Below are positions 3,829-39,272 of a DNA stretch of 64,000 nt, one piece after another (position 1 is the stretch's first letter; each line of letters starts with the position of its first letter). Below the pieces are notes generated by a model. It saw nothing but the letters and a program-made list of their open reading frames with translations. It was not told the DNA's origin and did not search any database. The translations under genes and the position numbers were made by a program. This DNA comes from Eledone cirrhosa (Eukaryota): positions 67,518,001 to 67,582,000 of the forward strand of contig OZ024744.1 in the NCBI GenBank assembly GCA_964016885.1. Direction: 5' to 3'.

Positions 3829-4180
3829 AGAATAGAAAACAAAAAATCAGTGATGCATCTGATTTATTGTGTTACAATTGTTTCGCCAGCGGACAGCTCG
3901 AGACGCAATCATTGTGTGGATCTGTCTGATTCTGAACCCGCAGATTCGACGGACACGTCTAATGATTTCGGACCATATTCTCTCAGTGAGAGAATCAGAC
4001 AGATCCACACAATGATCGCGTCTCGAGCTGTCCGCCGGCGAAACAATTGTAACACACGATAAATTGAGTTCAGATGCATCACTGATTTTTCGTTTTCTAT
4101 TCTATCATACTCTGCTCTGTAAGAGCATAGAGTGCTCAACCGGCATACCGCCTATGGAAGCATCTTAGCTACCATCAGAC
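3829..4180 (+). mobile_element. Fold-back element: arms 3829-3933 and 3991-4103, tail 4104-4180 with ACTC...GAGTGCT hairpin, half-hammerhead GAAACAATTGTA at 4040-4051
   Basis: The inverted arms are directly visible. The element lies between a (TA)n(GA)n tract and a (TA)n tract, and its tail motif is shared with other fold-back elements. Confidence 0.75.
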
Positions 4181-4773
4181 ATATATATATATAGCAGAAT
4201 GGTCTGGCATTGCTCGGGATTCTAAACATAGATTGGCATGTTTATCCCTCCTTTCTGAAACAGTAGAGAGAAGAACGGAATACCTCGGCCTCGGGATGGT
4301 GTCTACATTTTGTGCTTATAAAAATAATTCGTCGCAGATTACCAGGGGTTTAACTTAATTGGGTGCCTGAAAGTAAAATGTTCAACCCACGAAAGCCAAG
4401 AGTTAAGTAAAAAGGCATTCAACAAACCGAACATGTATTTGTTGTGCTATGGTACAATGAAAGCAATAGTTACAGAGCAGTAAGCATGTGGGACTGCAGT
4501 GGTGGAGAGTGGTGTTTTCTTACTCCTTTCAATGTTCCGTCGTATCTTCACCAATTGATGCAGAAGTCCTAATAAAAAGTGAAGTCGCCTTGGGTGAATA
4601 GGCAAATAATTTTCCATTACGATTTTTCAAAAGCATGTAATTGCGTTCCCTCTCTTTTTTGTTGTTTTTGCTGTTGTTGGTCTGATAGCAGCCGTTGGTC
4701 GTACTAATAACACAGTCTCGTCCTTCTTCAGCCAATCGTGTATATCCCCTTCTGCCTCGTCTACCTAAAAAAT

Positions 4774-6563
4774 ACCTAAGGGAAATGAAACAGGACATGA
4801 ACTGTGCCATGCACAACTCTGACGAAGACTTTGAACCATTTAACATGGAAGAGCTGCATGTAGCTATGAAACACCTTAAACCCGAGAAGGCAGCCGGCCT
4901 GGATGGCATCATAGTGGAGGTGATACTGCAATTTGGAGAAATGGTGAAAACATGGCTCCTGTCGCTCTTTAACAACTGTGCATCAGCCTGTCAAATACCA
5001 AGGATATGGAGAAGAGCTAGAGTTGTGGCTCTTTTGAAACCAGGCAAAGACCCGGCATCTCCAAAGAGCTACCGACCAATATCCTTTATGTGCACCCTTT
5101 ACAAATTATACGAGCGCATGATCATGGCTCGCTTGTCCCCTACTGTAGAAGAACATCTATCTCCAGACCAGGCTGGCTTCCGACCCGGCCGATCATGCTG
5201 CGTCAAGTACTGAACTTGACTCAATACATCGAGGATGGATTTGAGGCCAAACAAATTACCGGAGCAGTCTTTGTCGACCTCACAGCTGCCTATGATACCG
5301 TGAGTCACGGAGCACTTACTTCTTTTAAAGGTGGCCCAAACAGTTCGGAACACCACTGCAGTCCACATAATTGTGTCACTGCTCATCAATCGGCGATTCT
5401 TTGTTGAGATGGATGGCAGGCGAAGTAGGTGGAGGGTCCAGACAACGGACTCCCACAGGGCTCTGTGCTGGCCCCTATGTTGTTCAACATTTACACAAAT
5501 GACCAGCCGCTGTTCCACAATATTCGTAGATTCATGTATGCGGATGATCTCTGCATCGCAACACAGTCAGGCTCTTTTGACACAATCGAGGAAATACTCT
5601 CGAATGCCCTGACAACTCTCTCTGCATACTACATAAAAATGGTACCTTAACGCTAATGCCAGCAAAACGCAGGTGTGTGCCTTCCATCTTAACAACCACC
5701 AAGCAAACAGGAAACTAAAAATCAGATGGGGCAACAATGAACTGGAAATCCACCCTCATCCAGTTTACCTCGGAGTTGCCCTTGATAGAACGCTCTTCTT
5801 CAAACAACACATAGACAAACTTAAAAGTCAACTGGCAACTAGAAATAATCTCCTCAGCAAACTAACCAACACCAGCTGGGGTGCAGATCCCATAACACTG
5901 AGGCAAACAGCACTGGCACTCTGCTACTCCACCACAGAATATTGTTCACCAGTATGGACAAGGCCGTTCCATGCAAACAGAGTTGAACAAATCATGCCGG
6001 ATGATCACCGGAACATTAAAAGCAACTCCCCTTCCAGCCGTATATACTCTTGCCGGCATTCCACCGCCCCACATACGACGAGAGGTCAACGCAAAAAACT
6101 GAACGGTACAAACAACACGATCCCAGGCATCCACTCTATGGCCACCAGGAAATCTGAAGATGATTAAAATCTCAAAAAAGCTTCTTAACCGTGGATAGCC
6201 TGGAGCATGCACAATCGGCGGCTTACAGGTTGGAAAAGTGGAGGGAGAGTGACCGCCGCCCACCCAACGCGGCCTTACCAAGCCCAAATGAAAGCTTCCC
6301 CAATGGAACATCTCTTAGCAGAAAGGACTGGGTAACCCTAAACCGGGCCAGAGCCAAAACGGGCAAAACTGGAGACAACCTCCACAAGTGGGGATTGGCC
6401 ACCTGCGCTGAGGACCCCCGCGGCGGGACCTCCCAGACCATAGCCCACATCCTACGTGGGTGCTCACTGGGCCCCACATGATCCGACCAAGACCTGATGG
6501 AAGCAAACGACGCTGCACTTCAATGGATACGACACTGGTGCGACAAGATATGATGATGATGAG
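4774..6563 (+). mobile_element. 5'-truncated, frameshifted non-LTR retrotransposon RT (Vingi/Ingi-like; clade tentative) nested in the Helitron
   Basis: RT motifs KAAGLDG, SYRPIS, QAGFRPGRS, FVDLTAAYDTV, GLPQGSVLAP and YADD, then ALALCYSTTEYCSPVW and a (GAT)n tail. A 9-bp TSD CTAAAAAAT lies at 4765-4773 and 6564-6572. Confidence 0.9.
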
Positions 6564-6574
6564 CTAAAAAATGA

Positions 6575-38086: not shown

Positions 38087-38332
38087 ATATATATATATAT
38101 TTCGTTTCTGAATTTGTTTAGCAAGATTCTTTATCTGAAATCGTGTGTTAAAACCGATATTGTTATACTTTGGGAGGGTCGTGTTGCCAAAGTATAACAA
38201 TATATATATATATATATATATATATATATATATATATATATATATATATATATATATATATATATATGTATATATATATATATATATATATATATATATA
38301 TATATATATATATATATATATATATATATATA

Positions 38333-38737
38333 TGTAGGAGGTGAGTTTTATTGTAGTACAATAAAGCAATGCAGATATCGGATAAGAAGCACTCTACAAT
38401 TTGTAGGACTGGAGTATACATAATATATAAGATCAAAAGATGGTTAAATGAGTTCCATATATATTATTATGCGCATTTCAAAAACAAATATCATCATGCA
38501 ATAACATTTGTGTTTTCATCAGATAAAATAGGAGGACATGATATGAAGGTTAAAAAAACACTTGTGATATGTTGATTTAAAACTGCACTATCCACAAGTG
38601 TTTTTTTAACCTTCATATCATGTCCTCCTATTTTATCTGATGAAAACACAAATATTATTGCATGATGATATTTGTTTTTGAAATGCGCATAATAAAATAC
38701 ATGGAACTCATTTAACCATTTTTGATCTTATATATTA
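38333..38737 (-). mobile_element. Fold-back hammerhead element: arms 38421-38569 / 38589-38737, tail 38333-38420 on the left
   Basis: Inverted arms flanked by (TA)n. The tail reads ACTCC...GAGTGCTT on the - strand. Confidence 0.88.
38629..38699 (+). ncRNA. Intact type I hammerhead ribozyme; mirror on - at 38462-38530
   Basis: TATTTTAT-CTGATGA-AAACACAAATAT..ATATTTGTTTTT-GAAA-TGCGCA-TA-ATAAAATA gives a perfect 8-bp helix I, a long helix II, palindromic helix III and an AUA triplet. Confidence 0.88.
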
Positions 38738-38758
38738 TATATATATATATATATATAT

Positions 38759-39272
38759 ACAATATTAAATAAATGGAAAACTATATTTATAAAACCATAT
38801 TTATTTCATTATATATATTTCGGGGATATCATATTAACAATATGCTATGCCTTCATCAGACAAAATACAATATAAACAGTTTTATAGATAAATATATTCG
38901 ACATACCGTAATAAACATCGACTTCATTTGAAGAGGTTTACGCTAGCAGTGGTTGACTGCTAGCGTAAACCTCTTCAAATGAAGTCGATGTTGACTGCTA
39001 GCGTAAACCTCTTCAAATGAAGTCGATGTTTATTACGGTATGTCGAATATATTTATCTATAAAACTGTTTATATTGTATTTTGTCTGATGAAGGCATAGC
39101 ATATTGTTAATATGATATCCCCGAAATATATATAATGAAATAAATATGGTTTTATAAATATAGTTTTCCATTTATTTAATATTGTAAATATACTCCAAAT
39201 ATTTGTCGAGTGCTTTTATATCAGTTATAAATATTTACTAGTTGTAACCCAACAATTTTAAATATAACTTTA
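38759..39272 (+). mobile_element. Fold-back hammerhead element: left arm 38759-38950, right arm to 39185 with a 38-bp tandem duplication at the junction, tail to 39272
   Basis: Hammerheads at 39077-39142 (+, CTGATGA) and 38802-38867 (-). Same family as 35761-36138. Confidence 0.88.

Follow-up and report, generated by a model that had tools for sequence, protein, structure and literature searches.

We analysed a 64,000-nt stretch of the Eledone cirrhosa genome (the window, whose numbering is used for all positions; G000 denotes the same genome and L numbers are locus labels) for a short motif, ACTC...GAGTRCT, that an earlier note had reported next to palindromic insertions. The motif is real. 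Judged by their sequence, the palindromes that carry it are 3′-end copies of six divergent families of Hydra-clade Penelope-like elements (PLEs), and a second hairpin lies beyond the tail, at a similar distance from the other insertion end. The signal therefore marks both ends, most simply as a start-positioning signal, and there is good support for an association of the two covarying hairpins with the two ends of the insertion. Since a hairpin copy lies a few bases beyond each end, it likely tells the reverse transcriptase (RT) where to start copying: the motif is likely a bulged RNA hairpin that would be bound by the element's protein to set the start of reverse transcription.

The pattern matched six times in the window, against a mean of 0.70 in 100 shuffles, none of which reached six. 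All six sites listed in the earlier note are present; a longer-loop variant that it placed beside the element at 1526 proved real (1489-1522, minus strand), and a possible "orphan" tail at about 55925-55965 is a true hairpin (55910-55930). Each of the six sites comes after a head-to-head palindrome embedded in (TA)n. The inverted arm stops just short of the hairpin, as had been claimed: counted from the last inverted-arm base not explained by microsatellite, it ends 8, 8, 8, 7, 9, 7 and 7 nt before the hairpin in seven window elements.

A sample not chosen by the motif was formed by the palindromes from 60 evenly spaced 10-kb stretches of G000 (600 kb). TA flanked 68 of them on one side only, 12 on both sides and 105 on neither. 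A strict hairpin started in the first 25 nt of the tail in 23 of the 68 one-sided (TA)n palindromes, compared with 14 of 5000 random windows, a mean of 0.045 in shuffled tails and 0/68 on the other strand, and the offset was 7–9 nt in 20 of 27 cases (four of the 27 being window elements). The prediction that the motif would be more frequent at palindrome ends than in shuffled tails, and at a fixed offset, was thus borne out. The 68 palindromes fall into 31 tail clusters; the hairpin was found in 10 of these, which comprise 31/68 copies. On these sample and cluster counts the motif is tied to one element group and not to every TA palindrome. A chance origin was rejected by the window shuffles, the genome-sample controls and the metagenome controls given below. 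Inspection by eye of the 12 palindromes with TA on both sides gave no clear single tail-less Hydra insertion, with L031 being ambiguous.

The motif consists of N-CTC, a variable upper stem and loop, a 2-nt 3′ bulge (TT, TC or TA), GAG-N′ and usually ACT or GCT; what had been described as a variable loop of 12–18 nt is a covarying upper stem plus the bulge. In 58 non-redundant hairpins, chosen by the two anchors alone, upper-stem positions 1–3 were paired in 51/58, 36/53 and 23/39 cases (31, 15 and 11 after shuffling). None of 2000 shuffles reached these values, so that the covariation proposed as a check was found for the first three pairs; pairing at positions 4 and 5 was not significant in this set. 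A bulge of 2 nt gave 87 pairs out of 111, whereas registers of one or three nt gave 18/115 and 22/106. The closing pair occurs as G-C, A-T or T-A. A TATA/ATAT patch was present at −11 to −3 (3–11 nt upstream of the hairpin) in 27 of 55 cases, against a background of 10%. Membership of a known RNA family was rejected: at gathering score Rfam reported two tRNAs only, and there was no match at the hairpin sites up to E = 5. Two metagenomic Hydra-like elements (L375, L379) have a T-A closing pair, TCTC...GAGA, a natural compensatory variant. Families with a 50–70-nt insert in the upper stem (L077:6157 on the minus strand, L060:4424, L061:7573) keep the core, bulge and offset unchanged.

The six window families had been taken for unrelated ones. 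Their open reading frame (ORF) starts are 34–65% identical and their leaders barely align, and on these alignments they appear as divergent sisters, not as unrelated repeats. The hairpins might be a selectively neutral remnant of an ancient duplication in the leader, passed on to every family, as the restriction of all carriers to one clade would allow; stem pairs that covary while the surrounding leaders barely align largely refute this, and the double motif is kept at ~40% protein identity, making a relic very improbable.

The carriers have a single ORF (717 and 737 aa) with a YRDD core and a C-terminal IY..Y[IV]G motif, that is, an RT followed by a GIY-YIG domain. Pfam gave no significant match on three ORF pieces, and both domains were therefore read from motifs and homologues. 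A CxCX5C linker motif is present in families A and F and in aligned homologues, DKT replaces DKG in families A, E and F, and RWR lies near the N-terminus (RWK in many homologues). CCHH is absent, with CxxC and CxH around a conserved E and N (alignment by eye against the Hydra description). Membership of the Neptune clade was rejected because both the CX2-5CxxC linker and the CCHH inside GIY-YIG are absent. The insertion target is (TA)n, and family B additionally ends in (CA)n. Hammerhead-core words (sequence words only) were found for families A, C and D and for the family at 55910; a simple pattern found none in the references of B, E and F, and there was no Rfam hammerhead match. The tandem period of family F is ~3.53 kb (Hydra clade generally <3 kb), and its protein is 42% identical to P0055, which by eye matches published Hydra-2_Amil rows almost letter for letter. 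The Hydra assignment rests on motifs and homologue alignment. The copy at 39192 belongs to a young family, with many open frames of ~740 aa among 150 scored matches. A search of viral_contigs gave no relative. At L345 (G000:C2:356028001-356034000) seven head-to-tail 299-bp units of the family F leader, with both hairpins, form a retrozyme-like non-autonomous array.

In the Hydra-clade leader the two hairpins sit 55–166 nt apart between the hammerhead region and the ATG. Upstream of family A ORFs both were found in 23/30 loci, the other 7 being cut short or interrupted there. A second hairpin was then predicted for the other families. Unselected read-through copies (A 4/30, C 1/30, E 1/30, B and D none) all six have hairpin 2. 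For families F, D and B the search patterns required a hairpin after the tail; they gave 308, 256 and 3 matches against 0 for the reversed patterns, and nearly all of the matches listed share one recurring continuation. A generic hairpin-pair pattern gave 1398 matches against 0 reversed.

Inverted arms stop ahead of hairpin 1, tailed arms ahead of hairpin 2, and 382 of 430 repeat-joined 3′ ends are located at one of the two hairpins. Tails of 165, 82, 80, 89, 98, 89 and 90 nt correspond to hairpin spacings of 166, 85, 78, 91, 97, 90 and 91 nt; tail length thus follows hairpin spacing over a range of 78–166 nt, and the start sites, read from genomic ends only, match the tail boundaries. The motif had been proposed as a cis signal that fixes where the inverted copy ends. 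Its fixed offset and its presence in autonomous PLEs support a cis signal, but it marks both ends and not only that of the inverted copy. Alternatively, the hairpins could serve packaging or translational control, as an operator near the start codon, with the ends set by TATA patches alone. Hairpin 2 does lie ~20–70 nt before the ATG, and TATA patches are found at the junctions. The leaders, however, are full of TA-rich patches, yet ends occur almost only at the two that adjoin hairpins, and the agreement of tail length with hairpin spacing also speaks against this explanation, which we regard as quite improbable.

The two ends are combined in a regular way. Of 165 head-to-head pairs, 85 joined a hairpin-1 end to a hairpin-2 end, one was 2+2 and none was 1+1; in 79 an end was a read-through or could not be assigned. 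The 59 bystander pairs included 35 of the 1+2 type and none of the 2+2 or 1+1 type. In all six families the arms of one insertion differ less than the arms of different insertions (0.4% vs. 4.1% in family A, barely in family B), and the own partner arm was closer than the median other arm in 60 of 77 cases. Near-identical arms within one insertion therefore point to one template. In 82 clean pairs the inverted arm was longer in 25 (by 80–140 nt in some), the tailed arm was longer in 16, and the arms were equal in 41.

In the reading that we consider best, and rather probable on the sequences at hand, a single RNA carries two RT subunits, each of them bound to one hairpin, and the two sides of a (TA)n cut serve as primers; such two-subunit, one-RNA priming is inferred because ends pair as 1+2, arms are near-identical and either arm may be the longer. 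The GIY-YIG domain would cut both strands of the (TA)n target, and two RT subunits would sit on one RNA, one per hairpin. At each seated subunit, one of the cut 3′ ends would be able to anneal to the UA patch lying 5–9 nt upstream, and both subunits would copy in the direction of the RNA 5′ end, which would often be an initiator-like TCA within the pseudo-long terminal repeat (pseudo-LTR). The two cDNAs would then be joined head to head, and the tail would be the stretch between the two start sites. Hairpin 2 would never be copied into the 3′ end, and on this scheme only tandem or read-through copies would therefore make new templates. If true, this would account for both the puzzling tail and the mirror-image form of these elements.

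Two other routes to the same products were weighed. A single cDNA started before hairpin 2 might fold back, copy itself and stop 7–9 nt before the hairpin 1 boundary, which is close to the idea of the earlier note and to the self-priming idea in the available part of PMC3846280. Fold-back accounts for the 1:1 pairing of ends, for near-identical arms and for the 41/82 equal-armed pairs with tiny spacers; it cannot produce the longer inverted arm seen in 25/82 unless later deletions are common, and the same motif and TATA patch, at a similar offset, would have to start synthesis at one site and stop it at the other. We consider it unlikely. The hairpins might instead mark the place at which a nuclease (the GIY-YIG domain of the element or an enzyme of the host) cleaves the RNA, or an RNA/DNA intermediate, slightly upstream; ordinary priming would then begin at the ends so made. 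The fixed offsets suit such a cut, PMC8557442 suggests in the part available that the tail derives from endonuclease resolution of an intermediate, and, according to the available text of PMC11167929, recognition by the D. virilis endonuclease requires the tail. Two separately cut RNAs, however, would not enforce 1+2 ends (85 vs. 1), and initiation is internal on unprocessed RNA in PMC11167929, as far as its available text goes; nuclease positioning is doubtful in our judgement.

Many arms share a 5′ stop point. In families A, C and D it is the A of a TCA word and resembles a transcription start, and the sequences suggest that most short copies may come from transcripts starting in the pseudo-LTR. 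Hammerhead cleavage was rejected as the arm 5′ limit: in A and D the limits fall at TCA words, ~70–90 nt upstream of the core. We presume that the TCA words at this limit are initiators (Inr). An Inr-like TCACT in the pseudo-LTR is mentioned in the part of PMC3846280 available. The arms of short palindromes (A, C, D and F leaders; L129, L341, L331, L344) often stop at the A of TCA, 70–200 nt upstream of hairpin 1. TATA-like words occur ~25–30 nt upstream of the TCA stop in families C and F.

A metagenome scan with protein alignment yielded 77 loci at ~40% identity; the ORF start is covered in 32 of them. Within 200 nt upstream of this start, at least one hairpin was found in 23/32 and two hairpins in 16/32, compared with 11/290 windows inside ORFs, none on the opposite strand and 0.71 after shuffling. 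Sixteen loci have both a 5′ and a 3′ copy; six of these end at a contig edge, one is a read-through and nine are true 3′ junctions. Seven of the nine diverge 2–4 nt before the hairpin (after chance extension). In the rows of File S7 of PMC8557442 compared by eye, the published sea-cucumber consensus Hydra-1_Ajap has both hairpins at its start and its end lies directly ahead of hairpin 1, and the tails of Hydra-2_Amil and Hydra-2_Ajap contain hairpin 1.

Several observations weigh against the proposed role of the hairpins. Two of the nine metagenomic junctions lie 11 and 21 nt from the hairpin, 9/32 metagenomic loci are without one, and, by eye, the only hairpin of Hydra-1_Crog is diverged and the published stretches of Hydra-1_Obim that were viewed show no clear one. 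Conservation is partly descent, because all carriers belong to one clade. The covariation shuffles take no account of relatedness, CTC/GAG hardly varies, and the 5′ anchor was mis-picked in about ten cases. Strand evidence is thin, and the excess of G-U (10) over A-C (3 or 4) would be a weak hint at sense RNA. Lone hairpins fold weakly (z −2.84 to +0.24 for seven window hairpins); such weak folding of the hairpin by itself would be in keeping with an element held by protein. The queries selected in part for hairpin-2 ends, and family B, with a poor reference, fits least (28/55 ends). A cap-derived G at the 5′ limit was seen weakly, in 12/38 arms, and is not used as support. Later deletion or conversion within palindromes could also yield unequal, near-identical arms.

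The signal is specific to the Hydra clade, being absent from a tRNA element and a Neptune-type family of the same genome. A tRNA-Ser-headed element (window 10421-10822; L285, L299) has arms that meet at the tRNA 5′ end and a tandem period of ~263 bp. The earlier note had placed ACTC in it at the offset seen in the other palindromes (10796); ACTC is indeed present, at 10797, but neither this copy nor its read-through copies have a GAGT partner, and the element was rejected as a carrier. The element has two end sites and a tail, with the word TCGCT..GTTT after both end sites at different distances. The commonest hairpin-less palindrome family is a Neptune-type PLE (window ~38090-38200; L425-L456; motifs by eye), whose copy at L456 has a 1329-aa open frame with an asparagine-rich insert and, by eye, the CX2-5CxxC linker and CCHH. 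Both ends of this family are followed by ATATCG, 60 nt apart. These sequences hint that duplicated start signals may be general and their form clade-specific.

The Hydra clade described by Craig et al. (2021; PMC8557442) resembles the elements analysed here, in the parts of that paper available, in a single ORF with RT and C-terminal GIY-YIG, a CxCX5C linker and DKT, and likewise in (TA)n targets, hammerhead words, partial tandems, an inverted 5′-truncated copy and a one-end tail. It differs in tail length, given there as 30–40 bp, whereas here it is 78–166 nt and matches the spacing of the two hairpins. The words hairpin, stem-loop and bulge do not occur in its main text. PAc, a PLE of the Poseidon clade from Anolis carolinensis, was shown in vitro to cut both target strands and to extend them (Frangieh et al., 2024; PMC11167929); in the available text of that study two internal start sites bound the tail, a dimer is predicted, and no general signal was found. 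PAc is thus alike in two internal RT starts bounding the tail, in cutting and extension of both strands, in an AT-rich target and in an RNA element near the pseudo-LTR/ORF junction. It differs in that its starts lie in one AC-rich stem-loop inside the ORF, described as non-homologous to the target, whereas in the Hydra elements here each putative start has a copy of the conserved bulged hairpin to itself, located in the untranslated leader, and a TATA patch that matches the target. The PAc RNA letters in Fig. S1 of PMC11167929 contain no CUC by eye. By eye, two similar GGC-C..GCC words, each followed by an AC-rich run, seem to lie ~35 nt apart in the same letters; they are a possible duplicated signal in Poseidon. 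Non-LTR retrozymes (bioRxiv 10.64898/2026.07.22.740005) are alike in being short PLE-derived tandem units (cf. L345), but the words stem, tail and hairpin do not occur in the text of the preprint available. The hairpin is not described in the available parts of PMC11167929, PMC8557442, PMC3846280, PMC2377424, PMC4209133 and this preprint. A literature search, with subscription papers (e.g., 2005-2006 Arkhipova, Pyatkov 2004) and Repbase notes outside its scope, found no description of the signal. The elements are known, and the tail and the two internal start sites are published; the hairpin signal is apparently undescribed.

In L1 twin priming, a single RNA is primed by both target 3′ ends and the product is an inverted head-to-head insertion; the second priming event occurs only now and then and is not programmed. 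In contrast, both sites here would be fixed by RNA signals and routinely used. Small stem-loops that set where an RT starts or stops include the hepadnavirus epsilon, the telomerase template-boundary element and the 3′ stem-loops of stringent pairs of long and short interspersed nuclear elements (LINE/SINE). The Hydra hairpin is likened to these by role, not by sequence, and to our knowledge none of them occurs as a tandem pair that sets the two ends of an insertion. Telomerase is the sister group of PLE reverse transcriptases, and the origin of the PLE tail and inverted repeats is stated as open, in the part of PMC8557442 available. With a hairpin that is conserved, covaries, is duplicated and keeps a fixed distance to each end, the start-signal question becomes directly testable, and there are many intact young copies to work on. 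For curators it provides a boundary rule for Hydra elements and their short derivatives (31/68 one-sided TA palindromes in the 600-kb sample). On a wider proposition our judgement is evenly balanced: PLEs may generally replicate by programmed twin priming, in which tandem RNA signals would place a pair of telomerase-like RT subunits on the same transcript, and each subunit would start at one side of a double-strand cut. No signal of this kind would have been defined across phyla before the Hydra hairpin, and other clades would have duplicated words of their own. A single mechanism would then underlie the tail, the inverted arm and the dependence on tandem copies, and it would represent a minimal two-site targeting module.

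Features of the hairpin-bearing insertions and of the tRNA-headed palindrome in the window
Feature	Position	Strand	Remarks
Hairpin 1, family E	1489..1522	-	G-C closing pair, 6-bp upper stem, TT bulge
165-nt tail, family E	1366..1530	-	hairpin spacing 166 in read-through copy L250/L342
Head-to-head palindrome of family E 3′ ends	1531..2556
Head-to-head palindrome, family B	3832..4100
Hairpin 1 of family B + RCT	4109..4136	+	tail 4101-4182
tRNA-Ser-headed palindrome	10421..10786		tail and inverted-arm layout alike, without hairpin; not a motif carrier
Hairpin 1 of family F + RCT	14150..14175	-	tail 14104-14183
Short head-to-head palindrome, family F	14184..14299
Palindrome, family A copy 1	35761..36050		hammerhead-core words 35952-35993 (+), 35818-35859 (-)
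Hairpin 1 of family A (copy 1) + RCT	36058..36080	+	tail 36051-36139
Family C copy, short inverted arm	37852..37989		hammerhead-core words 37887-37929
Hairpin 1 of family C + RCT	37999..38027	+	tail 37990-38087; upper stem weakened in this copy
Hairpin 1 of family D + RCT	38388..38415	-	tail 38334-38422
Palindrome, family D	38423..38735		hammerhead-core words on both arms
Palindrome, family A copy 2	38760..39184		arms reach TCA initiator-like 5′ limit; hammerhead-core words 39085-39126
Hairpin 1 of family A (copy 2) + RCT	39192..39214	+	tail 39185-39274
Hairpin 1 of further family	55910..55933	+	G-C closing pair, TA bulge, ACT; hammerhead-core words 55816-55852 precede

In the copy at 55910 the tail ends at (TA)n 45 nt on, and no inverted arm was detected. 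Palindromic insertions without the hairpin lie in the window at 12344-12949, 13496-13982, 51113-51716 and 59186-60024, and at least four further hairpin-less tail families were seen in the random genome sample. Decayed non-LTR retrotransposon ORFs and a Helitron-like helicase fragment, recognized by eye and unrelated to the hairpin, occupy 4500-8800, 22200-25500, 31000-33200 and 42000-47300.

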